This document shows, one piece after another, positions 2 to 17,600 of a stretch of DNA of 64,000 nt (position 1 is its first letter; the number at the start of each line of letters is the position of its first letter). Made by a program: the position numbers and the translations under genes. Under the pieces are notes generated by a model, which was not told the origin of the DNA, did not search any database, and saw only the letters and a list, made by a program, of their open reading frames with translations. The DNA lies in IMG/VR virus record IMGVR_UViG_3300028361_000023, positions 1 to 64,000 of that record. One strand, given 5' to 3'. The DNA is from a virus.

Positions 2-175
2 AAAGAAATGGTTCTTAGTCTTTCTGTAGGTACAGAAGAAACAAAACAAGAATATGTAAAAGAACTTAACGAGGATTTAAAGTTAATAAGTACTGCACCT
101 ACAGAAGAATTAAAAAACTACTACATTCAACAATATAATCTTAAAGTAGAAGGATTACAAAAATTAAATAAATAA
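2..175 (+). CDS. 3' end of an upstream gene (partial), probably virion cargo protein
   Basis: Open frame 2 from the window edge (KEMVLSLSVG...GLQKLNK*); its TAA at 173-175 overlaps the ATG of the next gene (TAATG). Confidence 0.75.
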   Translation, partial: KEMVLSLSVGTEETKQEYVKELNEDLKLISTAPTEELKNYYIQQYNLKVEGLQKLNK

Positions 176-3100
176 TGCCAATATTAGAAGACATAGCAAA
201 ACAAGCTGCCGAAAGTCCTCAAAATGTTGAGAACAATAAAAACACTACTGATAATTCTGTTTATACACCTAATTACGGTTTAGTTTCTCAAATTGACTTA
301 AAAGGTAAATTTCCAGAATTAATTGGAAAATCAATTACAGACGAAAGTAGTAATCCTAATGAAGTTCTATTCGACCCTACTGGTGGTTATGCTACTGAAA
401 ATTTAAAAGCAAGACAACAAAATATTCTTGAATTGTTAGGTAATACTGCTGTTCAAATTAGTGCAGAAGTTGTTAGTGGTATACCTAGTGCTATTGGTGC
501 TTTATTAGAACTTCCTTCTCTTTTACAAGGTGAGTCTGATTTTGATAATTGGTTTTTAGAAGCTGGAGAAGATATAAAAGAATGGTCAAGAGAAAGTAAT
601 CCTATATATAGAAAAAACAGAACAGCAACTTTTAATATGACTGATACAGCTTGGTGGGCAGAAGGTAGTGTTAGTGCTATAGGTAGTACTTTAAGTCTTA
701 TGATTCCTGGTGGTCTTGGTGCTAAAGGTCTTAGTATTTTAGGGGCTAAAGCTTTTACTTCTACTTTAGGTAAAGTAGCTAGATTTTCAAATGCAGCTGA
801 AAAATACGGTAAAATAACTGATGAGGTTGCACGTGCTGTTTATATGGGTAGTATTATGCGTAATACTGAAAACTTTATGGAAGGTTATCAAGTTAAGAAA
901 ACTTTTCAACTTGAAAAAGCAAATGATTTTTTTAATATTGATGCTAAAGATAAAGACGGTAATAGCAGTTACGTAACTGATAATGAGATAGAAGAAATAA
1001 AACAAAAAAACAACTTAGATAAAGACGCAACTAGACAACAAGTATTAGAATTTTTAGGTAATAAATCTGCTGCTCATAGTTATAAAGTTAATAGTGTTAA
1101 TTTCTTATTTGATATAGTTCAAAGTTACGGTATATTAAAAGGTGTTAAAAATGTAGGTAGATTATCTACTAAAGCTGCTAGTGTTGAAGCTCAACAACTT
1201 ACAGGTAAAGCATTTACCAAAGCAGGTAGATGGGGATATAGAGGTAAAACTTTAGGATACAACATACTTACACAAGGACTTGGAGAAGGAGTAGAAGAAC
1301 TTATCAACCATATTGGAACAGAAGAAGGTCTTCATTATGGTAATAAACTTTTAAAAGGAGGAGAAGATAAAGGATTTATAGGAACATATACAGATCCTAA
1401 TAATGGTTTTAGTGGTAGAGTTTCTGAATATTTACAAGATCCTCATGCTTGGGAAGCTGCTTTTTGGGGTGTAATAGGTGGCAGTATTATGCCTGGTTTA
1501 ATGAGTGAATCTGGTAAACTATATAATAAAGCTAGAGGTAATCCTAATGTAGATGTTAGACTTACAGAAATAACTGCAAGAGAAACTGAAATGATGAAAA
1601 ATAACGGAATGCTTGCTAAGTTAAATCAAGGTATTAATCCTTATACTGGAGAAACTCTAAAAGATAGTGAGGAGGAAATAGAAGATCAAAAAAACGAAAT
1701 AGCTGAACAATTAAATTATCAACTCGCAATTCAACTTGCTAATAACGCTAGAAGAGCTGAAAACACTAAAGGACTTACTAGTTTTTTAAATAGCGAACAT
1801 GTTCAAAAAACAATGGAAAAAAACGGTGTAACTGCTGAACAATTTTCTAATGTTAAAAAAGAAACAGAAAATATGTTAGGTAGTATTGATAATATATCTA
1901 ATTATTTTAAATCTAGTAACGAACATATTAGTAGTATATTAACTACTAAAGCTATAAATTCTCAAACTCAATCTAAATTTTATAACAATATAGCTGAAAA
2001 ATCTAGACAAAGATTTGAAAATAAAAAAAATAAAGATGATTATTACAATAATTTAACAGAAGAAGAAAAATTCGAATATGATTATATTTCTGAATATCAA
2101 AGCAATAATAATACTATAATAGATTTACAAAATCATTTAAAAAAAGAAGAAGAACGTAAAGGCAGTAAAAGTATAGCAAATAAAACATTTAATAATAATG
2201 TTAAAAAAAGTATAGAAGAATTACAAGCTAAAAATAAAGAACTAGAAGAAACATATAAAGAAAGTCTTGATCCTAATCTTGTAAAAAATGTTTCAAAATC
2301 TAAAGCAATTAGAGATTTACATAGAGCTAAAGTGTATGAAGAACTTACCAAAGCTGAAAAAGTTAGAACAAAGTCTATATATGATAATGTATCTCAAATT
2401 ACAAAAGAAGTACAAAACGAAATAAAAGAAATCGTATTAGAAACACAAGATGAAGCTAATGAAAATGCTCAAATAGCTTTAAATGATATTGATGAAAATA
2501 CTGAAAATTATTCTGATAAAATTAAAGAAATAAAGAAAAAGTTTAAAGAAACTAATCCTAAAGATACTTCTATTGATTTTGCTGGTAAAATTAAAGAACT
2601 TGACCAAATAAATAAAAAAGCAAAACTTGTAGCGATAGAAAAAGAAGACGTAGAAACAGAACAAAAAAATTCTTTAGAAAGCGTTAAAGAATCTATAACA
2701 GAAGAGACAGGTATAGAGTTACCTAAAGATTTATTTATGGATAATTTCCAAGATACAAATAAAACTATAGAAACTACTGAAAAAATCATTAAAATACTTC
2801 AAACAAAAGAACAAACTCCAGAAATAGTAGAAAAGTTAAAAATAGTTTCAAATGCGTTAGAGGTTTATAAGACTAAACAGTTAAATAAAATAAATTATAA
2901 TGTAGAAAACAATGATAGTGCTGAAAGTTCTAATCAAGTTAATATATATCTATCTTCTGTAGCTGAAGCAAATAATAAAAGAAAAGACGGTAATATAGTT
3001 ATAAGTGATCTTAATACGGCTGTAACTTTAGGACAACTAACTAATAATTTAATTAACGGAGAAAAGCTTATCATAAGTTACGCTACTAAAGAATCTGATT

Positions 3101-5685
3101 TTCCTAATAGAAAGTCTTATGAAGAACATAAAAAAGATATAGGAGATAAAAACAATGCTCCTATTGTTTTACGAAGTAGAAGTGGACAACTTATAGGACA
3201 TATAAATTCTCTTAGATATTTAATACAAGAAGGTAATTTAACTAATAAAATATTACAATTAAATCCTATTGAAATAGTAGAATTAGCTACATTACTTGAC
3301 ACTTATTTAAAAGAAAGCACTGATATAAATAAAAGTAATCTTATTAATTCTAAATCATTTGCAAAAGCTACTGGCATAACTAAAGAACAAAGTGAAGTAG
3401 CAGAAGAAAGAACAAATAAAGCAATTAATCATATTACTAATCTTGTTTTATTTACTAAAAGCAAAACAAACGAAAATACTTTTGAAGCTAAAGAAATTAT
3501 TGACAGTTTAAAAATTTGGCAAAATAAAATAAAAAGAGATTACAGAAATAATAAAAAAATTAGAAACAACATTAAAGAAGGTAATCAAACGATAGAAATA
3601 GGACATATAAGCTCTGGGTCTATTGTTAGTCTTAAAGATAACAATGGAAAAAATATTTATAAACCTTTAAAAGAAACTATTGTTCAAGATAATATTAAAA
3701 TTACTTTTACTAGACCTAACGACAAGACTACTTTAGTTACATTAGACAAAGACGTTAAACTTATAACAAAAGAAGAAGAATACAAAGAAGACTTTTATAC
3801 TTTATTAGAAAGTAAAGGTAATTACATTCCTGTGCCTATTTTTAGAACATATCTTAATCAATCTAAAAACAAAGAAATGTATGAATATGTTAAAACTAAT
3901 TTATACAACATAATTAGTATTCTTGATAAAGGAGAACCTATGAACTCTCAAACATATTTAGATGCTATTGCAAAACTAAGAAACGTAGTTTATGTAGAAC
4001 AAAGAGAAAACGGTAAAGGTTTTAATAAAGGTAAAAAAAATCAAGAAACTGGAATAACTTCTAAAGCTAGATTTGAATTTCAAACAGAAAAAAACGGTAA
4101 AATATATTTTAATATAGATAAAAACGGTAAGTTAAGAGTTAAAGTAGAAGGTAAAAATTCCTCTATGGAAGCTGCTGATATTGACGAAGCTATAGGTCAA
4201 ATGAAAAGACATGCTGATTTTAGATTGCTAGAAAAAAATGATCCTTTTGTAGATGTTAGAACAGGTAAAGCTTATAAATCTTATAAAGATTTTCTTGTAG
4301 ATACAGATGTTTTTCAATCTAATATAGGTAAAGTTATATTTAAAAATGGAGAAAATACTGCCGAAATATCTAATTTTACTGCTTCTAATAAAAATAATGG
4401 ATATGGATTACCTTTAATATTAAATCTAAATGCTGATACTTTAGAAAGTGAAACAAGTGAAACAAGTGAAACAAATACTAACAAAGCTGATACAACGGAA
4501 AGTATCTCTTCTATAGGCAGAATTAACAGTGTCAAGGAATTAACAGACTTGTTAAAAGAAAAATATTCTGTAGTTGCTAATTTAATAAATAATAACTATG
4601 TTTCTATTAATCCCGAAATAATAGACAGTAGTACGTTACCTGAAAGTATACAAACTGCTTTTGGTATTCATAAAGATGGTGTAATTTCTTTTACTGATAA
4701 TATAAATAATAAAAGACTTGAAAATGGTTTTTTAGATTTTAACGATATTACTGCAACAGTTGTTCATGAAGTTATTCATAGTGTTATAGCTAATCTTACA
4801 CCTAACGGAAAAACAGAATTATACCAAAATTTAAACACATTTTATACAGAGTTAAACCAGCATATAAGTAATAATAAAGTTGTAGTTCCTGCTAGAGTAC
4901 AAAACTTATTATCTTTTATAGATAAAGAAATAAAAAAGGACTCAAATAACATAGAAGAATTAGTTACTTACGCTTTTACTAAAGATTATCTTGCTAAATT
5001 TTTAAATGATTTAACTATTGATAGAACTTCTAAAACTAAATCAAATACTTTTTTTGGTAAATTAAAAGAAATAATATTAGGATTATTAGAAAATACAGGA
5101 TTTACACAATTAGATAAGTTAAACAAAGTAATAGATGATACACTTTTCGGAAAAACAAAATTAGAAGAAGTTAAAGAAACTAATAGTAAAGAAAAAATTG
5201 ATACCGAACAAAAAAAACAAAACAAACAAAAAGTTGATGAAAATAACACAACTAAAACAATAAAAAAAGAAACAATTGATGATGATATAGAAGATATTGA
5301 TATTGATGTTGTTTTTAATGATAATTTTCAAGATCAAGATTTTCCTTCTAATCAAAGACCACAAAGATACGTTCAAACTATTAAACAACAAATTAGAAAC
5401 GAATTAATAAGCAAAAATCTCATTGATAAGTACCACGTTTTTAGTATATTTGACGATAACGGAAATTCTAATTTAGATAAGATAAATAAAATTGTAAATA
5501 CATATAGAACTGCTGCTTTTAAAGCGGGTAAAACTTTACCTGTTGATATATATGAATTTGACGATAATTATATTAATGATTGGGGTACTAAAGGTAAGAT
5601 TAATTTTAACCCAGAATTAGCAAATGTAAGATTTGATTCTTTTGTAGAAAATAAAGGTAGAGAACTTAAAAAATATTGTAAATAA
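175..5685 (+). CDS. Giant virion cargo/ejection protein with C-terminal zincin-like metallopeptidase domain
   Basis: 1836 aa; Gly/Ala-rich hydrophobic segments near the N-terminus, coiled-coil middle, VVHEVIH (HExxH) at 4765-4779 followed by EELVTYAF; directly upstream of the vRNAP as in crAss-like phages. Confidence 0.8.
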   Translation: MPILEDIAKQAAESPQNVENNKNTTDNSVYTPNYGLVSQIDLKGKFPELIGKSITDESSNPNEVLFDPTGGYATENLKARQQNILELLGNTAVQISAEVVSGIPSAIGALLELPSLLQGESDFDNWFLEAGEDIKEWSRESNPIYRKNRTATFNMTDTAWWAEGSVSAIGSTLSLMIPGGLGAKGLSILGAKAFTSTLGKVARFSNAAEKYGKITDEVARAVYMGSIMRNTENFMEGYQVKKTFQLEKANDFFNIDAKDKDGNSSYVTDNEIEEIKQKNNLDKDATRQQVLEFLGNKSAAHSYKVNSVNFLFDIVQSYGILKGVKNVGRLSTKAASVEAQQLTGKAFTKAGRWGYRGKTLGYNILTQGLGEGVEELINHIGTEEGLHYGNKLLKGGEDKGFIGTYTDPNNGFSGRVSEYLQDPHAWEAAFWGVIGGSIMPGLMSESGKLYNKARGNPNVDVRLTEITARETEMMKNNGMLAKLNQGINPYTGETLKDSEEEIEDQKNEIAEQLNYQLAIQLANNARRAENTKGLTSFLNSEHVQKTMEKNGVTAEQFSNVKKETENMLGSIDNISNYFKSSNEHISSILTTKAINSQTQSKFYNNIAEKSRQRFENKKNKDDYYNNLTEEEKFEYDYISEYQSNNNTIIDLQNHLKKEEERKGSKSIANKTFNNNVKKSIEELQAKNKELEETYKESLDPNLVKNVSKSKAIRDLHRAKVYEELTKAEKVRTKSIYDNVSQITKEVQNEIKEIVLETQDEANENAQIALNDIDENTENYSDKIKEIKKKFKETNPKDTSIDFAGKIKELDQINKKAKLVAIEKEDVETEQKNSLESVKESITEETGIELPKDLFMDNFQDTNKTIETTEKIIKILQTKEQTPEIVEKLKIVSNALEVYKTKQLNKINYNVENNDSAESSNQVNIYLSSVAEANNKRKDGNIVISDLNTAVTLGQLTNNLINGEKLIISYATKESDFPNRKSYEEHKKDIGDKNNAPIVLRSRSGQLIGHINSLRYLIQEGNLTNKILQLNPIEIVELATLLDTYLKESTDINKSNLINSKSFAKATGITKEQSEVAEERTNKAINHITNLVLFTKSKTNENTFEAKEIIDSLKIWQNKIKRDYRNNKKIRNNIKEGNQTIEIGHISSGSIVSLKDNNGKNIYKPLKETIVQDNIKITFTRPNDKTTLVTLDKDVKLITKEEEYKEDFYTLLESKGNYIPVPIFRTYLNQSKNKEMYEYVKTNLYNIISILDKGEPMNSQTYLDAIAKLRNVVYVEQRENGKGFNKGKKNQETGITSKARFEFQTEKNGKIYFNIDKNGKLRVKVEGKNSSMEAADIDEAIGQMKRHADFRLLEKNDPFVDVRTGKAYKSYKDFLVDTDVFQSNIGKVIFKNGENTAEISNFTASNKNNGYGLPLILNLNADTLESETSETSETNTNKADTTESISSIGRINSVKELTDLLKEKYSVVANLINNNYVSINPEIIDSSTLPESIQTAFGIHKDGVISFTDNINNKRLENGFLDFNDITATVVHEVIHSVIANLTPNGKTELYQNLNTFYTELNQHISNNKVVVPARVQNLLSFIDKEIKKDSNNIEELVTYAFTKDYLAKFLNDLTIDRTSKTKSNTFFGKLKEIILGLLENTGFTQLDKLNKVIDDTLFGKTKLEEVKETNSKEKIDTEQKKQNKQKVDENNTTKTIKKETIDDDIEDIDIDVVFNDNFQDQDFPSNQRPQRYVQTIKQQIRNELISKNLIDKYHVFSIFDDNGNSNLDKINKIVNTYRTAAFKAGKTLPVDIYEFDDNYINDWGTKGKINFNPELANVRFDSFVENKGRELKKYCK
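4446..4474 (+). repeat. 9-bp tandem repeat (AAGTGAAAC x3, SET-SET-SET) in a linker
   Basis: Read directly from the sequence. Confidence 0.9.
4503..4520 (-). repeat. Dispersed 18-bp motif copy 1 (CTGCCTATAGAAGAGATA)
   Basis: Matches CTGCCTRTA-R6-AYA; inside ORF 175-5685. Confidence 0.9.
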
Positions 5686-8600
5686 TGAGTAAATGTCCAA
5701 ATAAAAATCATCCTGCATTTATTGATGCAGCTAATGTATTAGGTGAAAATGTAACTTATTCTTTGTATGAAGCTTCTAATGACACATTAGTAGATGAACA
5801 TCCTTTGTATGAAGAGTTTGTAAATGCTTATGGGATAGAAAATGGTATTAAGAAAATTGCTGATAGAGTACTTAATCAAGGCAAAGTAAATTATACTTTA
5901 AAATCTATAAATTTATTATCTTCTGATAAAGCTATACAAGTATTTGAAAAAGGGGAAAAAAATAATTGGAGTTTAGATAAAATTCTTACAGAACTTCAAA
6001 TACCTAAAGAGCAAAAGCAAATTATTCTTGATAAATATAAAAATAATAATATATTAAATCAATTAATTTTTCAAGATGGAACTTTAAATTCAAATAAGTT
6101 ATTAGAAAAATTTGTAGATGATTCTTTTGCAGGTAAATTAATAGATTTGTTAAATAAAAAAGGATTATTTAAAAATATTTCTGAAATTAAATTAAAAGAA
6201 AATAATAGTAGTGCATTAGGTTATTATACACCAGAAGGTTATTTAGAAGTTGATGCCCCTGTATCTCATCAACAAAGAACAGTTTTACACGAAGCTTTAC
6301 ATTCTGTAACAAATATTAAAATTGAAGAATACTTTAAATTATTTCCTAATAAAAATATAGGAAACAATATTTATACAGAAGTACCTAGTTATGGAAATAT
6401 CAACTTAACTAAACAAGATATAAATAATTTAGATTCTTTAGTATCTATATTTCAAAAAGTTTTAGATTCTAATTTAAAATTTAATGAAGATCCAAATATA
6501 GCTATAAGTAATAACAATTACGGTTTAGACAACTTACATGAATTTTTATCAGAAGCGTTAAGTAATCCGTATTTTGTAGAACAATTAAAAACACTACCTT
6601 CTATTAATAATAAAAGGTCTAATTTATTTAAAGATTTTATAGAAAATATTTTATCTTTTTTAAATATAAATAAAAATATATCTATTTATGATGATATTGT
6701 GAATAATTTTGAAGATTTATTTTTAACTAAAAAAACAACCAAAAATAATTCTAAAACTAACCTAAGAGAAGATATTATTACATCTTTATTAGCTGAGAAT
6801 GCTGTAGTTACAGATGTTACTAACATTCAATATTCTGAAAATAAAACTTCTTATATTAATTCTAAATTAGAAAATACTGGCAGTAACCTAAGAGAAAAAG
6901 ATGTAGAAACACCAAAACAAAAATCTTTAACACCAGAGCAAAATAAATCTATAGAAAATTTAAAATCTATAGAACCTGCTTATGCTGATTATAGTAATGA
7001 ACAGATACAATCTTTTATAGAAAGTAAGATACCTGATAGTCAAGCTAAGCAAGTTTTGTTTCATGGAGGTACTTTAATAAAAGACGAAAAATTTAAAGAT
7101 AATTATACAGGGTCAAAAGGAATATACTTTACAGGAAGTAAAAAAAGAGCAGAAAGTTATATTAAAGCAAAAGGTAGTACGGAATATAGTAACAATAGTA
7201 AAATATATGCTACTTTACTAGATATTAAATCTCCTTTAAATAAAAAAGTATGGAGTAAATGGAAATTTAATGCAGACACTATTAACGACAAAGAATTTAA
7301 ACAAATACAAGATAATAATGCAGATAGTATTATAGATAAAGATTTTTTTAGTAAAATAGGTTTAACTAATTACAATACGCAATATATAGTATTTGAACCT
7401 TCTCAAATAACAATATTAAACTCTCCAGAAACAATACAAGAGTTTAAGGAGTTTATTAATGCTAAAAGTGAAAAAAATCAAAATAAAAAAATATTACTTG
7501 ATAATTTTGATGAAAATAATAAAACTAATCAAGACAAAGTAAATTACACTTTAAAATCTATAAATTTATTATCTTCTGATAAAGCTATAGAAATATTTGA
7601 AAAAGGAGAAAAAAACAATTGGAGTTTAGATAAAATTCTTACAGAACTTCAAATACCTAAAGAGCAAAAGCAAATTATATTAGATAAATATAAAGATAAA
7701 ATAGCAGGTAAAAAATTATCTATAGTAGCAGAAAGAAGAAAATTAGCAACTGATAAAGATTTAGAAAATTCCCAACTTATTAAAGATATAAGAGTAGATA
7801 AATCTCAACCTAAAGAATTAAAACCTAATGGATATGATAATAATTTAGCAGCAATTATGCTCTATGGTATGAAAATGTCTGAATTAGAAGATAAAGGATT
7901 ACCTGAAGAAATGCAAGAAGCTAATGTGTTAGCTTATAGAATATTAAATAATTTCATGTTTAATATTAATGAAATAACGGAATTTATGGACGTTATGACA
8001 CCTCAATATGCAAATGTTTTAACTACTAATGAAAATCCAGTTAAAGAATTTTTTGAAAATGATGTGTTTGAAGAAAGTGATAAAATTAATCTTAACCTAA
8101 GAGAAGATATTATTACATCTTTATTAGCTGATAATAGTTTTGTGGTTGAAGTTAATGTTGCTAAAGAAAATGATAAATTAGGAAAACAACCTCATCCTAT
8201 GGAGGGTGAACGATCTTTTACAGTAAATGGAGATATATACACTTTAAATAGTGATGTAGAACCAGATGGCGAAGGAGGTATAAGTAATTTTACTACTGCT
8301 TATAAAAATGATAAAGAAATAACAATTGAAGAATATTTAAAAGGTAAAAAATTAGCAAGTGATAAAGGAATTAACACATCTTATTACTCTAATCTAACAG
8401 TTCCAGGTGGTACTAATTATACAGAAAACGAAATATCTACACCTGATATTATACCTAATATTAAAGGTCATGCACAGTTTAGTACTAATAATGGTATAGG
8501 ATGGTTTAGAAGTGATGATAAATCTAGTATAATTACAAAAGAAATAGAAACTACTGAAAAATATGACCCTGAATATGATGAACAAGGTTTTTACTCTAAA

Positions 8601-11600
8601 ACCCAAAAAGAAGAAATCACTAGCTTTTTTGTTGAATATAAAGAAGCTAAAGAAAAAGGTGTTTATATTAAAAGTGAGAACGGTTATAAATTAGGAGATT
8701 TTTTATATAAAGAATTTGACTTAGCTTTTGAAGGTATAAAATATGTAAAATATTTATACAAAGGAGAGTTAAAAGATACTAAAATCCGTAGAATACTAGA
8801 AGTACAATCTGATTTATTTCAGAAAGGCAGAGATAAAAAAGATTTAATAAGTAACATAGAAGATGAAACTTTTAGAAAATTAGCTGATAATCAATTTTTA
8901 CAATTATTAAACAAAAAAGGTAATTGGGTTAATTTCTTTATACAATCTATAGTACAAGATAGTGTTAAAAAGGGTTATAAAAAAGTATTATTTCCTACAG
9001 GAGAAACTGCTGCTAAAGTAGAAGGTCATGAAACTATTGCTGAAGAATTACTTAAGCTAGAAAATGAAATTATAAATAAAAAGCAAAGGTTAAAAGAAAT
9101 AGGAAATAAAACCACAGAATACATAATAGCAGACCCTTTTGAAGGAGAGGAAGTTTATAATAACAAAGAAGAAGCTGAAAAAGTAGCTAAACGTAAGGGT
9201 TTAAAAGTTCATATAGGTAGTGTAATTGATAATAACTTAGAAGAGGAATTAGAAATACTAGAAAAAAATAAAAACAATCTTAAAACTCAAGGTATAGAAA
9301 AACTTAAACCTGTTGAAGCTTTTTATACTAATAGAGTTACTAACATTCTTAATAAATTATATGATGTAACTCAAATTACTGATGAACATAGTAATACTTG
9401 GAATGAAGTAGATATTACTAAAAAAGAAAATCAAAGTAATGATATTTTTCTTGATAATTTTGATGATTCTCCTATTAAACCTGAAATCAAATTACATAAT
9501 ATGGAAGGTTATCTTGCTAATAATATATCTTTTAATTCTGATAGTATTAATTTAAACGCAATTGAAAGTTTAGAGGTTAAAAACGTAACAGCTTTTATTG
9601 TAGCTCAAGTTAATACTTATTTAGAAAAAAATAAACTAAAAATTTCAGATGAAAAACTCAAAGAACAAGTAATAAAAATTATAAAGAGCAAACTTAATGT
9701 AGATAATTTTACAGCCGAACAAAGAAACTTCGTAGAAAACAAATGGATAGCTGGACTTGAAAGAGATAATTCTTATTTATGGGGACAAATTAAAAATATA
9801 AGTAATAGTAAATACGGTAAAGTTCTTACCGAATTTAACGAAGAATTTGCTTTAGACGTTAATACTAAAGATTTTGATGATAGTAAAAGATTTAAAGAAA
9901 GTACTTTAAAAGGAGAACAAGATTTAAAAAACAAAATAAATCAAATAATTAAAACACCAAAAGAACAAAGTTACTCTGGTTTTGATGTTTATTTTGATTT
10001 TCGTCAAATTGCTGGAAAATTACATAGACATTTACAAAATACTAATAATAAAAATTTTATAAATAACTTTAGTGATCTTATTTTAATAGATAAAAGTTAT
10101 GAAAAAATATTAAATAAAGTTAATGAAGATGAAAATTTTAAAATAAAGTTAGCTAATTTTACAAATGTAGAATATATACAACCTAATCTTGATATAATTA
10201 CTGTAAATTCAAAAGGAATTACAAGTTACAAAACAGAAGATGAAACAAAAGGACAACAACCTGGAATTAAACTTGCTAATAGTTGGATAAATGAATATAA
10301 AAAAATAGTAACTATCCGTGATTTACAAAAAGAAAATTTTTTAGACGAAATAACTGACATAGAAAAAGAATTTAAACAACATTTAATAGCAGAAGATTAT
10401 AATAATGCTGCTAAAACTTTAGTAGAACTTTTTGCAAATATTAATATAAATATAACTAAAAATGATTTATCTAAATTTATAAAAATAAATCCTGAATTAA
10501 TAATATCTGAATATTTATCACAACAATTTGATACTTATAAAGCATTTAAAGACTACGCTATTTCTTATGAAGGTGGCGATACAAAAACTACTTATCCAAA
10601 TATAAATAAATTATTTAGTCCTTTAAATAATTTTGCTGTTGATATGAGTATTGTAAGTTCTGAAGAAAAAGAATTAAGATACGCAGATGTTAATCAAAAT
10701 ATGTCTAGTGCTGTTGTTTCTAACTACCATTTAAGAAGATTTTTTAATACACTTAAAGGAGATAATGGTAAAGCTTTTCTTGTTGAATCGTTACTTGAAA
10801 AAGGTATACAACATTCTAATTGGTTAATTAGTGGTAAAATAATTATACCTCAATCAGACAAAACAGAAATCATATTTGATAGTAATGGTATACCTGTAAT
10901 TTTTGATATAAATAAAGAAGTTGTAAATATTATGATAGACCAACCACTTGCAGGTTCTGTTAATAAATTTACTAGACAAGGTAAAACGTATGAAGATTTC
11001 GTAGAAAAAGATTCTATGATATTGCAATTTGTAAAATACGTAACGAATAAAGAAAAACTAACTACTAAAACTACTGGTATGAGTATTATAAATATGAATA
11101 CTCCGTCAGAAGGTAAAGGTTTTGATTTAACTGTTCCTATAACAACTGTTATACCAAATATGGTAAACGAATTAGAACGAATTGAAAAAATAAACCAACC
11201 TAAAGTAGTTAAAAAAATAGACCAAAGAGGTCTGCCTATAGAAAGAATATTTTCTATAGATGAACAAAAAGAAGCTGCCTTAAAGTACTTATTTATAGAG
11301 ACTGAAACAATAGATAATAAAGTTGTAGAAAAAAGAAATAGTCCTATACTACAAGCTTTTATGAATATAGCTTTACAAGAAATAGAAAGAATACAAGAAG
11401 CTAATGAAGATTTTGGAGATATACTTGATGGAAAAACTACAGATAGAACTCTTGATATTCCTAAAATGCAAATGTTTTATGATTATAAAACAAAAACCAC
11501 AGTTAAAAAAGACGGAACTAAAATAACTACTTTAATAAAAGGTAATAAATTTAAATTTAATACTTTATCTTATCTAAATGATTTTTTAATTAAAGAAGAC

Positions 11601-14600
11601 GTAGATATAAATAAACTAACTAAACAAGACATTATAATAAATGGTGTTTACACTAAGTTAGGTAAAATGTTAAGATACGAAATAATTAAAAATATAGCTA
11701 ACAAAAGTTTAAACGCTAGTAAACAATATACAAAACTATATCCTGAATTAAAAAGTTTAAACAAGAATATTGATATTTTTAAAAACGATGCTGCTGAATT
11801 TGTTTTAAATTACGAAATTACTCAAAATGAATTAAGTAATTTTGTTACAGGTAAATTAGGAGAATTTAAGTCTGGTGTAGATTTTATTAAAAGAAACAAA
11901 AAAACAACTACATTAGGTAAACCTCAAAACGTAGAAAACGAAAACGAACATTATGTTAGTTTGAATTTAAAAGACATAATAGTTGTTAGTCCTAATTTTA
12001 ATATTCCTATAGAAATTACAGATGCACAATCGGTAATAACACTTGGATTATTTGAAGAAAAATCTAAAAGAAGAGGTGCTCTTACTCCTAAAAGAAAAGA
12101 AGCTATAGAAAATATAAAAAATGGAATTAAAACAACTGAACAACTAAACCAATTAAAAAACTTTCATACTTCTTATAGATTTGATAAAAAAATAAATGGT
12201 AAAGGTTTAAATAGAAGAGTATCTAAACAAGTTAAAAATAGTGAATTAGTTGTTCATTCTTCTATGTTTCCTGGAACTCAATTTGGAGAGTTTATGAAAT
12301 ATATAGAAGAATTAGAAGAAAAAATAGGTAAAAAAATTCAAATAAATGTAAGTTCTGGTCAAAAGCATGGTACTTTTAAAGAAGTAGATATAGTAGACAA
12401 AGATGGAAATTTAGACCTTAATGATATTACTAAAGAATTATTAGAAACTAGTTTAGATAACAAATATTATAGTGATGAAACAGAACAACTTAGTTACGAA
12501 GCTGAAGAAAAAAACCACGATAATAATATAGGTTCTCAATTACATAAAGTATTATTAACTAATCTTAGTAATGATGCTGTATATGAAATAGGAAATAAAA
12601 AACTTACTGGTCCAGAAGTTCAAAAATTAATAGGAGAATTACGTTCTATTGATGTTGAAAACGCAGCAAAAGAAGTTGTTAAAGATTTAGAAGACGAAAA
12701 TGGAAATGTAACAGAATTAAGTTTAGCTAGTTTTTTAAGAAATCACGGACTTAAACAAGATTGGGCTAATAATATATTAGATATGTTACAAGAAGACAAA
12801 GAAAGAGGACAAACATTGTTACCTTTTTATTTTAGTAGTGTTAATACTAAGATACAACAAGCTCTTACTTCTTTGTTTACTAATAACGTACTTAAAGAAA
12901 AATTTAATGGAAGTCACAAGTTTCAATTTGCTAATTTTTTAACAGATAAAAAACCTATAACAGAAAGTGAAATTAAAGAAGAAGATTCTTTTAATAGTAT
13001 AACATGGATAAATGGAAAAGTAGAAGAACTAACTTCTACTATTTTAGATGGTGAAAGTAGATTACATGCAAAAGTACTTCTACCTTTTACTATGAAAGAA
13101 TTTATGACTAGTGATGTTAAAAATCTTGACAAAAAAGCTTTACAAATGTTAGGTTATAGAATACCAACAGAAGGTAAATACTCTGTTTATAGTTTTGAAG
13201 TGGTAGGATTTTTACCTGAAGCTTTAGGTAGTGCTGTAGTTTTACCTAACGATTGGATTGCTTTATCTGGCTCTGATTTTGATATAGATAGTTTATATAT
13301 TGTTTCTTATTATCTTGATAATGAAGGTAAAGTTATAGAATATTTAGATGACACTAATAGTACTGTAGAAGAAAGATTTTATAAAGTAAATAAACCTAAA
13401 CAATTTGAAAAATCTAAAAAGTTAGTTGAGTTATTAGAAAATAAAAACAAAACAACAGAAGAATTACTTACACAAATAAGAGAAGAATTAGAAGTTAATT
13501 TTAATTTTAAAGACTTAAATAATAAAGAAATCATAAAGCTATTAAAAATAGAGAGCACTAAAAGAGTAACTACTATTGCGGAAGCAAAACAAGAATTACA
13601 AAAAGCAGAAGATAATAACAATAATTTAGAAGCTGTTTCTATATCTAAAACTATTAAAAACCAAACAGAAACTCTTAATTATCTTAATGATTTAAAAAAC
13701 TTTTTCTTTGAAAATAGTAAAGATATATCTCAAGAGACTAATAATCTTTTTGAAAAAGAAATAAAAATCTCTAATGCTCAAAAATTTGAAGAATTTAAAA
13801 AACTTCCTATATCTAAGCAAAATACTAAATTTGCTAGAAAAAATCTAGTATTAGAAAGTTATCAAGAAATTATTTTAAACCCTAATTCACATGCAGAAAT
13901 CAAAGAAAGATCTAGTTTTGATTCTATAAAACAAAGTACTACTCGACTTGAAAATCTTTTAAAAAGTAAAAATAAAGAAGAACTTCATCCTTATGATTTT
14001 TTTGATCAATTAAAAACTACTAGTTTAGTTCTTGCAGGTAAAAAACTTAAAGGGATGGCTGTTCAATTAAAATCTACTACTGATATAGCAAATGCAGTAG
14101 GAGGCATAACGTTAAGTAAACCTTTACAAATAAAACTTAGTAAAAATCGAATAAAAGAAGTAGGCATTAAAAACATTAAAAAAGTATTCGGCAATTCTTT
14201 TAACGAAACTACAAGAATACTTACTTTAAGTACTATAGGTAAAACAACAACTGGAAGTAATGTAAATATTGATAATATTTTTATAACAGGATTAACTTCT
14301 CAAACTACAGCATACACTCTTGATATTGTTAAAGAAGGAGGCATTCCTGGAGTTACTACAGATACTCTTACTACTTTTGTTTTACCTGCTATGTTAGGTT
14401 TAGAAAATTATGATTTTTCTATAATGTTACTTAATCAACCAATAATTAAGTATTATTTAACACTAGAAGATAATGAAAAAGGTCATTTTAATACAGGAAA
14501 CTACGCTAGTAATAGTCTTTATAGAGATTATAATAATCTTATTAATAGGGCTAAAAACCCAGAAAGTAAATTTGATAAATATATTAAAAAAGAAGACAGA

Positions 14601-17600
14601 ATTAAATTATTAGAATTAAATACTGTTCCTGATATAGAAGAACTAGAGAAAAACATAACTATTCAAAAACAAGGAGCTAAAAAAACTTTATCTAATGCTA
14701 AATATATAGAATACTTAGAAAACCAAATAGCTTTATTTAATTATTTTTTATCTGTTCAAGATATTAGTAAAGACATAGCAAATTTAAACGAAGTATTAAG
14801 TTATGATAAAATAGGAGGTGGTCCAACTTTAAATACTACTGTAAATCAAACTTATAAAGTTGTAGATATTGAAGGTAAATTTAGTATTAATGGTATTGAT
14901 TTAGTAGAAGCTATATTTGGTGAAAATTCTGTTTATCCTATGTTAAAAACATTTAAAGAACAAGTAAATGATACTAGTTATAATTTGTTTAAAGATTTCT
15001 TTATAACAGAAGGTGACACTGTAGTTTCAGAAATTGTTTCTACTGTAAATGGTAAAGATAATCAAGAAGCATTAAAAAAATACATAGTAAATGTTTTTCT
15101 TATAGGCAGACCTTCTAGTCCTACTTATTTTGGCGAACTAGAAAACGATATGATAAGTAAAAGAAGAATACTTAATCCAAAAAACAAAGAAAATATCTCT
15201 GCTTTTGATTATCAATACGTAAATATAACTGATTTAAGTCAAAAGAATTTTGAAGTATTTCAAAGTCTTACAACTTCTAATAAATTAGATTTAATTAAAA
15301 ATCAAATAAGTAAATTAATTTCAGAAACACAATTATTTGATGGTATTAATTTTAATCCTGAAATTAGACTAAAGTATGATAAGTTAAATTTAGATTTAGA
15401 TAGTGATGTTGATATACTTATAGAAGAATATAAGAAAGCATTAAATTCTAGTAATCCTTTTGTTAAAAATTTAGCTTACGAATTAATAGGTTATGAATAC
15501 CTTACAACTGGTTTAGAGTTCGGTAAAGGATTAGCTAAAATAATACCTGCTGAAGTTTTTAGACAAAAACAAAGTGTAGTTGGTAATTTAGACATAAATG
15601 GAACCCTTAGAGACATACATAACAAGCTTAAAAATAAAACATACCCTGATCTTTTTGACGTATTAGATGGTTTTTTAAGAAGCAATTATAGTAATGATAC
15701 TCTTGTTCCTACTTTAAGCCGTGAAATTAAAGATAATATAAAAAAAGGAGTAGAAAAAGATACTATTTTTAATCTTGATGATTTACCTATAAAAATACAA
15801 AAAAATACAATATTTAAATATGTAAATAAAGACCAAGAAACTACTGAACTATATAAAAAATTTACAAATGAAAATGATGTATTTTTTAGAGAAGTAAATA
15901 AATTAGAAAAATTTGAAAAAGGGGATGAAAGTTATTATAAACCTAATAATACAGTTAATACTGCTGATACTTTTATGGATAACTTTCAAGAATCTTTATT
16001 ACATAACAACAATGAAGCAGTAAGAGAAGCTTTAGTTAAGCAATTTGAAGCTGCTAATTATTCTAAAATAACAGGAGAGTTAGAACATTTTACTAAAGAA
16101 TTTTTTCATAGGTCTATAAAACAAGATTTTACTAAACTAACTGAAAGAGAATTATACTTATCTATTTATGGTAATATAAAGAAAAAACCTTTATTACAAG
16201 ATATAGTAATGGTTGAAAATATTCAAATTAATAAATTACCACTAAGTGATCTTGCAAAACTAGCTAAAAGATTTGAGGATAAGTTAGATTTAAGTGATAT
16301 TGATTTAGTTTCTTTACCTGTTTATAAAAAAATAGAAGAACTAGATACCGAAGGTTTATATAGAGGATTACTTCAAATATATTTATACAATCAAGAAAAA
16401 TCTATATTTCTTAAAGACAAACTTGATAAATTAAATATAGATGAAAATACTCTTAATAATCCAAGTAGTAAAAAAGAAGCTACAAAAATATTAGACGAAT
16501 TAAAAAGATTTGTAGAAAGTTATAAAGATTTTGAAAATCTTAAATTTTATAAACAAGAAGAAGATACAAATAAACTAAATATACTTCAACAAAAAATAAA
16601 TACAGTTATAGGTAAAATTCAAGATCAAAAAAATCAAATAGAAAATCTTGATGCTAATAGAGATATTAAATTTACCCAACTGCTTGTAGAACTTTACAAG
16701 AAAAACTCAACACAAGACATAGGTAAAAACGATGAAGAAGTCAAAAATTTTGTAATAAATTCATTAAAGCAACTACACGATATAAGTTTTTTTGCTGAAA
16801 AAGGAGATACTATATTCGATTCTGGTCAAGCTTTTATTAGTATATTAGGAAAAGAAATAAGAACTAATATGGCAGAAGGAAATATAACACAACTTGACTT
16901 ATTAAAAGAATGGAATACGATATATAAAAAAATAGGAAAAATAGAAAATATACTTGAAACAAAAGAAGTTACAGACGTAAAAGGAACTAGAACTATTAAT
17001 ACTGGTAAATGGGACATAACTAAAACAGATGCTATAGGAAAAGAAGTTACAGCTTTTTTTGTTAAACTACAAAAATTAGCTATAGAAGTGTCTCCTGATG
17101 GAAGTATTGCACAGGGTTATTTACCTTCTATACCTAATTTAAAAGGAGACAGTTTAGATACTTTTATAAAAAATAGTTTATCTTATTATGATGATATTTC
17201 TTTAAATAATAAAAATAATGTAAAAGACAGTTTAGGTACTAAATTTAGTAATATAACATTACCTTTTGATACTCTAATTGTTAAAAAGAAAAGTATAACT
17301 TATAGGAAACAAGAAAAAGACGAAAGTATAGGAGAATATAATTCTAGTGTAATACATGATGTATTTATAACTACTGGTAAAACTTTTAACAGTGTTAAAG
17401 ACATTAGAACATATAATAAACTTGTTGCTGATAGAAATAAAAAACTTAAAAGCGATCTTCATGGTGAAAATATAGACTATAATATGGCAGAAATTATTCC
17501 TATATTTATAGAAAAAATTACACAAACTAAAAGTAAAGCAGATAATGTAGACTTAGCTAGACTTCTTGTAAATGAAGTTAAAAGCAGAAAAAATATCAAA

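Follow-up and report, generated by a model that had tools for sequence, protein, structure and literature searches.

Polyvalent proteins are huge polypeptides of mobile elements in which conflict enzyme domains, such as ART-PolyVal, zincin, kinase, and acetyltransferase domains, are strung together (Iyer, Burroughs, Anand, de Souza, and Aravind 2017, PMC5512222). They are extensively mosaic, are delivered together with DNA, and comprise virion RNA polymerases among their domains; a recombinational variability akin to that of polymorphic toxins has also been raised for them (PMC5512222). In polymorphic toxins, including those of the MuF type in phages, the delivery part is conserved, and the enzymatic part varies and is swapped by recombination at conserved junctions (Zhang et al. 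2012, PMC3482391). The RNA polymerase (RNAP) of cultured crAss-like phages and its neighbors are virion cargo proteins that were proposed to be ejected partly unfolded (PMC10172136), and the RNAP may be fused with its neighbors into a zincin-containing polyprotein (bioRxiv 10.1101/2020.03.07.982082). Here, we analyzed the N-terminal region of such a giant protein (4520 aa), encoded by an open reading frame (ORF) on the plus strand at positions 5685–19247 of a 64,000-nucleotide stretch of viral DNA (positions 1 to 64,000 of the IMG/VR record IMGVR_UViG_3300028361_000023, referred to as the window). Two sequences, A and B, occur there in two copies each. They probably represent the 5′ and 3′ halves of a conserved module with a slot at its middle turn, the cargo of which is exchanged by recombination, and the window carries two such modules in tandem.

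The earlier note on this DNA had taken the ORF for a giant protein of the virion RNAP type, and homology searches agree with this assignment. A DFDID motif was found at residue 2531 (nucleotides 13275–13289), and residues 2000–2700 matched RNAP catalytic subunits of Crassvirales, including the 'putative RNAP catalytic subunit' of crAss002 (tblastn, 27% identity, E 2e-29); a phmmer search with the RNAP region gave no match to PDB sequences, including the solved gp66. The RNAP is located in the middle of the ORF and is preceded by an N-terminal polyvalent effector region of ~1260 aa. The ORF runs for more than 3700 aa beyond the cargo described below, and the genes following it run in the opposite direction. 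Matches to the PHROGs families phrog_6681, phrog_6547, and phrog_11589 were obtained for the terminase, portal, and major capsid proteins of the window; by these similarities, the window derives from a crAss-like phage. The giant ORF product is probably an ejected virion protein, and by analogy it would be delivered into the recipient with the DNA, given the homology of its central part to the crAss virion RNAP and the proteomics of cultured relatives (PMC10172136).

A repeat search of the window revealed repeat A at 5873–6046 and 7526–7699 (174 nt, 94% identical, longest exact run 62 nt) and repeat B as a 75-nt pair at 6745–6819 and 8080–8154 (79% identical) with a core in which 39 of 39 nt are the same, also the longest exact run (6758–6796 versus 8093–8131). 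The two A copies are 1653 nt apart (3 × 551) and the two B copies 1335 nt (3 × 445), and all four share the single open frame of the giant ORF. The enclosed segments, 6042–6758 (239 aa with an HEALH motif) and 7695–8093 (133 aa), exhibited no detectable similarity to each other (BLASTP best E 3.1). Thus, the earlier description of two genuine repeat pairs at distances divisible by three, enclosing segments that differ in sequence and length and are not diverged homologues of one another, proved accurate. The 73.8-kb record as a whole contains exactly two occurrences of repeat A. The copies A1 and A2 differ at 10 positions, with a synonymous divergence (pS) of 0.165 and a nonsynonymous divergence (pN) of 0.029, and they are mutual nearest relatives at 94% identity, followed by the next nearest sequences at ~75–79%. 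Judged from these values, they are clearly paralogous, though not brand new. A second 'NLRE' start is found at 6879–6893 (residues 399–403, SNLREKD), 27 residues past B1, and may be a remnant of a further B copy or a chance occurrence.

Profile, Pfam, and motif searches resolved the plus-strand region into consecutive features. A1 (5871–6041; A-profile E 1.4e-30) comprises one β-strand and four helices and ends in ...KEQKQIILDKYK. It is followed by cargo 1, a zincin-like domain (6042–6755) with the HExxH motif HEALH at residue 202, and by B1 (6756–6824), consisting of the helix NLREDIITSLLAEN and a next strand that has diverged (AVVTDV). Between B1 and A2 lies an ART-PolyVal ADP-ribosyltransferase (ART)-like domain (6825–7493; Pfam PF18760, E 6.8e-9) that was matched at residues 457–575 with 37.1 bits versus a curated cut-off of 31.2. 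A2 (7524–7694) was identified both as a repeat and by the profile, cargo 2 is a predicted helical domain of 132–133 aa, here termed X (7695–8090), and B2 (8091–8159), with the helix NLREDIITSLLADN and the strand SFVVEVNV, runs directly into a conserved D1-D2 module (8160–9446) that is found downstream of A-B in most relatives.

The relation between A and B became evident from homologous proteins, denoted below as L for IMG/VR relatives (~40% identity overall) and as P for database proteins. In the IMG/VR relatives, the uninterrupted order is A, 3–4 residues, B, and then D1-D2, with a junction reading ...QKQIILDK-xIT-xREEIITSLLAxNSFVVEVNTA...; such a distance of 3–4 aa between A and B is seen in L001–L004, L006, L007, and L009. 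A scan with an alignment of A-B gave 36 viral IMG/VR loci, ~27 of which have contiguous halves. A search with the A-B profile in 1.84 billion representative proteins retrieved 484 clusters (50% identity; E ≤ 1e-3), and both halves were detected in 144 of 199 fetched proteins, separated by ≤4 residues in 122 cases, by 5–30 in 11, and by >30 in another 11. According to these alignments, A and B are the two halves of one ~75-aa module that is uninterrupted in most relatives. As expected for a nested domain, the halves are contiguous in homologues and the frame resumes past the insert. The earlier note had assumed fixed homology arms; instead of being free-standing arms, A and B are module halves, and the variability of the segment between them was borne out. 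The idea of a cassette exchange is thereby largely right if the arms are reinterpreted as halves of a module with a nested-domain slot.

An AlphaFold model of the uninterrupted A-B module of a relative consists of one strand and five helices, with pLDDT values of 75–90 for A, ~84 at the start of the B helix (ten residues, 63–74), and ~60 thereafter; the pTM was 0.55, with 25 disordered end residues. As the basis is pLDDT and pTM, we infer only that B may pack on A. The window's own A2-X-B2-D1-D2 segment was modeled poorly (pLDDT 60) and gave no match in Foldseek, and a PDB sequence search with the A-B-D profile returned a spurious coiled-coil match alone. D does not always come after A-B: in P0024, P0041, and L042, a different effector stands behind B in its place. 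The full D1-D2 was not detectable anywhere in the records of L042, L047, and L045 (one of these records is 96% complete), and L045 retains only the C-terminal part of D2, directly past its kinase cargo. In P0072, an interruption lies within A, with profile positions 4–42 and 43–54 being 185 residues apart and ART-like sequence between them; this insertion sits at another point of the module.

At the exact A|B junction, relatives hold either nothing or one of at least eight different inserts, so that the slot is variable and its content is not the same from relative to relative. Among the inserts are a GNAT domain of 126 aa identified by Pfam in L039, ~120-aa GNAT-domain relatives in P0041, P0053, and P0065, ART-PolyVal domains in L052/L055 (E 6e-8), L056, L040, P0024, and P0033, an AAA_33/Zeta-type P-loop kinase in P0022 and L046, and an ART together with a kinase in L045. 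A second kind of zincin, with an HEEIH motif and 238–241 aa, occupies the slot in L042 and L053, domain X that of the window and of P0004, the nearest relative with A-X-B (77% identity), an unknown 247-aa domain that of L047, and a 43-aa insert that of P0068; several relatives have short linkers of 10–24 aa. In all 25 filled alleles, the 'RE' of B is directly preceded by L or I, which holds for none of 108 uninterrupted ones. The 12-residue entry linker YK[DG]K[VI]SEQEFIK is common to L039 with its GNAT cargo and P0024 with its ART cargo. Two split copies of the module were found in the window only, one containing the zincin-like domain and the other X.

Exchange of cargo by recombination is documented by mosaic pairs of relatives. 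To the left of the slot, the identity between L053 and L054 is 96% over 5 kb, and to its right 94% over 3.5 kb; L053 carries a 712-nt zincin cargo exactly at A|B, and the module of L054 is uninterrupted. By base-by-base comparison, the left crossover falls within the ~40 nt at the end of A, beyond which L053 resembles L042 and no longer L054. L053 and L042 in turn share a single 888-nt tract (86.5% identity) that begins with A, spans the cargo, and reaches into B; no other nucleotide similarity between them was found in 8–12 kb. A third mosaic is formed by L052 and L055, which are 99% identical apart from a segment of ~0.7 kb in D1 that was swapped (L052:5811–6536 versus L055:3676–4266); this segment starts ~35 nt past the B core and ends at the conserved island that follows. 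In these three pairs, the exchange has occurred at a conserved junction as in polymorphic toxins. The earlier proposal of cassette exchange by recombination is thereby substantiated between relatives, and within this genome no such exchange is documented.

Two further pairs involve the slot. The window and L052 are 88% identical over 8094–8522, from the first base of B2 across a normally variable part of D1, and the cargo upstream differs (X versus ART). The kinase cargos of L045 and L046 are 88% identical, their A halves 77%, and their flanks unrelated. The start of D1 at window positions 8170–8380 (first ~70 codons) represents a second swappable segment, the window's version of which is common to L052 and L069 only (87–88% nucleotide identity). 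The 82–90% arm identity between the window and L052 was considered as a sign of recent exchange and rejected, the same islands being equally similar in all relatives.

The cargo domains are also found outside the slot. Cargo 1 of the window has weak homology to zincin regions upstream of A (29% identity, E 1e-16 for P0060; 37% for L018). The order zincin-ART-A-B-D is found in L044, L004, and P0060, and an ART directly upstream of A in L044, L027, P0048, and P0068. Since cargo 1 resembles the upstream zincin of the relatives, the window without A1 and B1 reads as the canonical order zincin-ART-A-(X)-B-D. The HEVIH zincin of the protein encoded upstream (4200–5685) is weakly similar to the HEEIH cargo of L042/L053 (21–22%, E 1e-8 to 1e-10), and therefore the same kind of domain is present both outside and inside the slot. 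Domain X had no Pfam match and nothing usable in the ESM Atlas. It occurs with 50–77% identity in 17 more proteins that have no A/B arms (P0005–P0021). In 11 of these 17, it is nested in an ART-PolyVal leader, within the frame ...SNPELAN.VYEALGFK-[X]-...QLYSQYLDTIFP.SKVKDIVYHG; the N-terminal ART-PolyVal leader of P0005–P0018 represents a second conserved 'frame' with a slot. This distribution indicates that the cargos can also move independently of the slot.

The architecture, the variability of the slot, and the mosaic relatives are observed; from them, the following explanation is proposed. The A-B module is located near the start of a giant protein that would be packaged in the virion of environmental crAss-like phages and injected into the host. 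Its 3-residue turn is the slot in which a minority of the relatives have an entire domain nested before the frame resumes. Cargo would be gained, lost, and replaced by recombination with crossovers in or beside the conserved halves, the DNA of which is kept alike by strong constraint on the protein. In the window, tandem paralogous split modules give the arrangement N-[A1-zincin-B1]-ART-DNF-[A2-X-B2]-D1-D2-...-RNAP, where DNF denotes a short motif treated below; with this layout, at least three accessory domains would be delivered by one polypeptide ahead of the polymerase. The two copies may stem from a duplication or from the fusion of two A-B-led genes and may be able to recombine with each other. 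An intragenic duplication could be the origin of the tandem, as could a fusion of A-B-led genes followed by gene conversion. The RecT-like protein that the earlier note had suggested as recombinase found no support: PF03837 had no match in the genome, and other annealases were not searched.

Several observations weigh against cargo exchange at an A-B slot. Six islands at 5885–6046, 8094–8170, 8380–8520, 8777–8850, 8889–9050, and 9282–9413 are 75–93% identical in nucleotide sequence in all relatives; outside them there was no blastn match in 20 kb, and the proteins are only ~40% identical overall. Since these islands are so similar in every relative, arm identity alone is no evidence of exchange, and only mosaic boundaries count as evidence against this baseline. 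The nucleotide conservation of the arms is mostly what would be expected from strong protein constraint in an AT-rich genome. The breakpoint between the window and L052 depends on the usually variable 8170–8380 stretch. A sometimes lacks a detectable B or D (L045, L046, P0037, P0044, and P0069), and no second protein with two A copies was found among the 199 examined. Fold searches with the A-B model (Foldseek, VIA-align wide) gave only weak helical matches with a best Z of 4.5, and faint helix-turn-helix-like rows were distrusted. A tree of the arms had 3 of 129 branches supported, and filled alleles did not cluster in it; as the tree is poorly resolved, a single origin of the split allele cannot be distinguished from multiple ones. 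Finally, a junction of A1 with X or of B1 with D was not seen in metagenome contigs (see below), which end inside A and B.

In a rival explanation, the arms are conserved for folding only and cargo enters by rare illegitimate insertion at a tolerant turn, followed by vertical inheritance; the arms would then be no substrates of recombination. Universal arm conservation would then be explained by protein constraint, the hydrophobic residue before B in 25 of 25 filled alleles could reflect a structural need, and the nesting of X in the ART leader indicates that A and B are not needed for the mobility of X. We nevertheless regard this explanation as unlikely, because L053 holds arm sequence and cargo of the L042 type within a backbone of the L054 type, A-cargo-B is the sole DNA common to L053 and L042, different cargos carry the same linker, and three independent mosaics break at or beside B. 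Somewhat less improbable, although still not favored, is that the double layout arose by fusion of two neighboring cargo-protein genes, each with A-B as an N-terminal tag for virion targeting or ejection. The repeats would then stem from this tag and would be no swapping device; this is compatible with a slot in the module. In agreement with a fusion, A lies 40–110 residues from the N terminus of many 1800–2400-aa proteins, proteins of the type N-A-cargo-B-other effector lacking D exist (P0024, P0041, and L042 mentioned above), a DNF motif is located three residues ahead of the A2 copy, and relatives have split as well as fused gene forms. However, no relative with two A-B modules in one or adjacent genes was found within the fetched flanks, and the 94% identity of A1 and A2 versus ≤~79% to orthologues would need a recent duplication or gene conversion instead of an old gene pair.

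For the tandem layout of the window, a simple duplication followed by divergence, with the enclosed segments as diverged copies of one domain, would account for A and B being duplicated in the same order. It is scarcely credible and is refuted by the inserts: at 239 and 133 aa, they lack similarity, they have separate homologues (zincin regions and the X family), and the synonymous divergence of the arms (0.165) is far too low for inserts that have diverged beyond recognition. It is also very improbable that the layout is an assembly chimera, in which co-existing A-zincin-B and A-X-B strains were joined via the repeats. Logan contigs (k = 31) from two lake-water metagenomes (X1 and X2) were compared with the window. 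Every unique segment of the repeat layout was present in X1 and X2 contigs with 0 mismatches. Owing to k = 31, the contigs break within the A and B repeats, and strain variants are present in the same samples, in agreement with a chimera; but the B1-to-ART and ART-to-A2 segments are error-free in both samples with depths that, after summing of the variants, agree with those of the flanks, the 10 differences between A1 and A2 leave a longest identical run of 62 nt that is shorter than a read, and the frame is open throughout. The variants comprise single-nucleotide polymorphisms at 6988–7004 and, in both lake metagenomes, a co-existing contig that agrees with the window as far as 7066 and again from 7403 onward. 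The intervening 336 nt (112 codons), which form the ART-PolyVal core, are skipped by this contig, which has ~40% of the local depth and suggests a strain in which the ART core was replaced or deleted; the low depth over the ART is due to such co-existing variants.

The remaining features concern the surroundings of the modules. The N-terminal leader of the giant protein (residues 1–62, 5685–5870, plus strand) matched L003, L004, L006, L053, and L054 in BLASTP and precedes A1 as it does in relatives in which the A-B protein is encoded by a separate gene. Upstream, a virion-protein gene (175–5685, plus strand, 1836 aa) with the C-terminal HEVIH zincin overlaps the giant ORF by ATGA; in relatives, the corresponding protein terminates in zincin and ART or is fused to the A-B protein. 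A regex scan for [DN]NF[DQE][DE] gave six matches in the two giant proteins, five of which are strict DNF motifs of the form [FLM]-x-DNF-[QD]-[DE] at 2734–2754, 5314–5334, 7494–7514, 9447–9467, and 15972–15992; the looser NNFED at 6702–6716 lies at the end of the zincin cargo. LLDNFDE (7494–7514, plus strand) is a candidate processing site just ahead of A2, and FLDNFDD (9447–9467, plus strand) marks the end of D2. The motif may separate the product into two mature proteins with an A-B module at the head of each. It was absent from the homologues in relatives, with a sole NNFED in L009. The conserved C-terminal motif FFENDVFEE of domain X resembles the DNF-type peptide.

The giant protein can now be compared with the known systems. 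In accordance with polyvalent proteins, it is one giant polypeptide of a mobile element with several conflict enzyme domains, uniting ART-PolyVal, an HExxH zincin-like domain, and RNAP in one 4520-aa phage ORF. It differs from them in that the variability is confined to one defined site in a small module, in that the domain is nested instead of being added end-to-end, and in that mosaic pairs map the crossovers. A-B, the D modules, and X are without a Pfam or PHROG model: Pfam has none for A, B, D1-D2, X, or the zincin-like cargo of the window, and PHROGs no family for any part of the N-terminal effector/A-B/D region or elsewhere in the two giant proteins. For D1-D2, which also had no PDB match, the ESM Atlas returned unnamed viral clusters at 0.83–0.84. 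The carriers, too, are different, being uncultured environmental crAss-like phages: neither the N-terminal 1272 aa nor the uninterrupted A-B module had a match among GenBank phages (megablast, tblastn).

The likeness to polymorphic toxins lies in a variable enzymatic part that is exchanged at conserved junction sequences. In contrast to the C-terminal tip that varies in these toxins, the variable part is internal here, between the halves of a module, and the presumed target would be the phage's host after injection instead of a competitor. The combination of a C-terminal variable domain, an immunity gene, and orphan cassettes was not encountered, the cargo being internal; no cassette array was seen beside the giant gene, where immunity genes and orphan cassettes were not specifically looked for. 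With the virion RNAP and cargo proteins of cultured crAss-like phages (phi14:2 gp65–gp67; PhicrAss001 gp47/49/50), the protein shares the DFDID motif, RNAP homology, an adjacent zincin protein, and the fusion into a giant ORF; unlike in these, there is an N-terminal A-B-D region with a slot, which has no detectable counterpart in cultured Crassvirales. The module theory of Susskind and Botstein reportedly holds that short conserved stretches between variable modules are crossover points between diverged phages. The exchange described here differs in taking place inside one gene at the level of protein domains, with linkers that code for the two halves of a presumably folded module.

Injected phage proteins act before phage gene expression and are therefore prime candidates for countering host defences; the cargo domains may well be injected host-takeover or anti-defence effectors. 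A more far-reaching possibility, which we put forward tentatively and consider doubtful as a whole, is that A-B is a portable 'effector socket' of environmental Crassvirales, perhaps a conserved carrier that tags each mature cargo protein for packaging or ejection, with the central turn as a hypervariable site serviced by recombination. Populations might then rapidly reshuffle injected enzymes (ART, GNAT, kinase, proteases, X), and tandem sockets might allow in-frame addition or loss of entire effector blocks via A1/A2 or B1/B2 recombination, as a within-gene analogue of polymorphic toxins that would serve host takeover or anti-defence.

Cargo exchange at the slot of a conserved A-B module, which we consider the probable reading, would have several consequences. 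The A and B halves provide a search handle for uncharacterized injected effector domains in metagenomes, such as X, the ~120-aa GNAT-like family, and the 247-aa domain of L047. They would offer a natural example of domain nesting that is kept by recombination inside one gene, and may point to a design principle by which foreign domains could be loaded into phage-delivered proteins. The polyvalent-protein concept would be extended to abundant uncultured aquatic crAss-like phages, whose giant RNAP polyproteins would evolve by intragenic module exchange.

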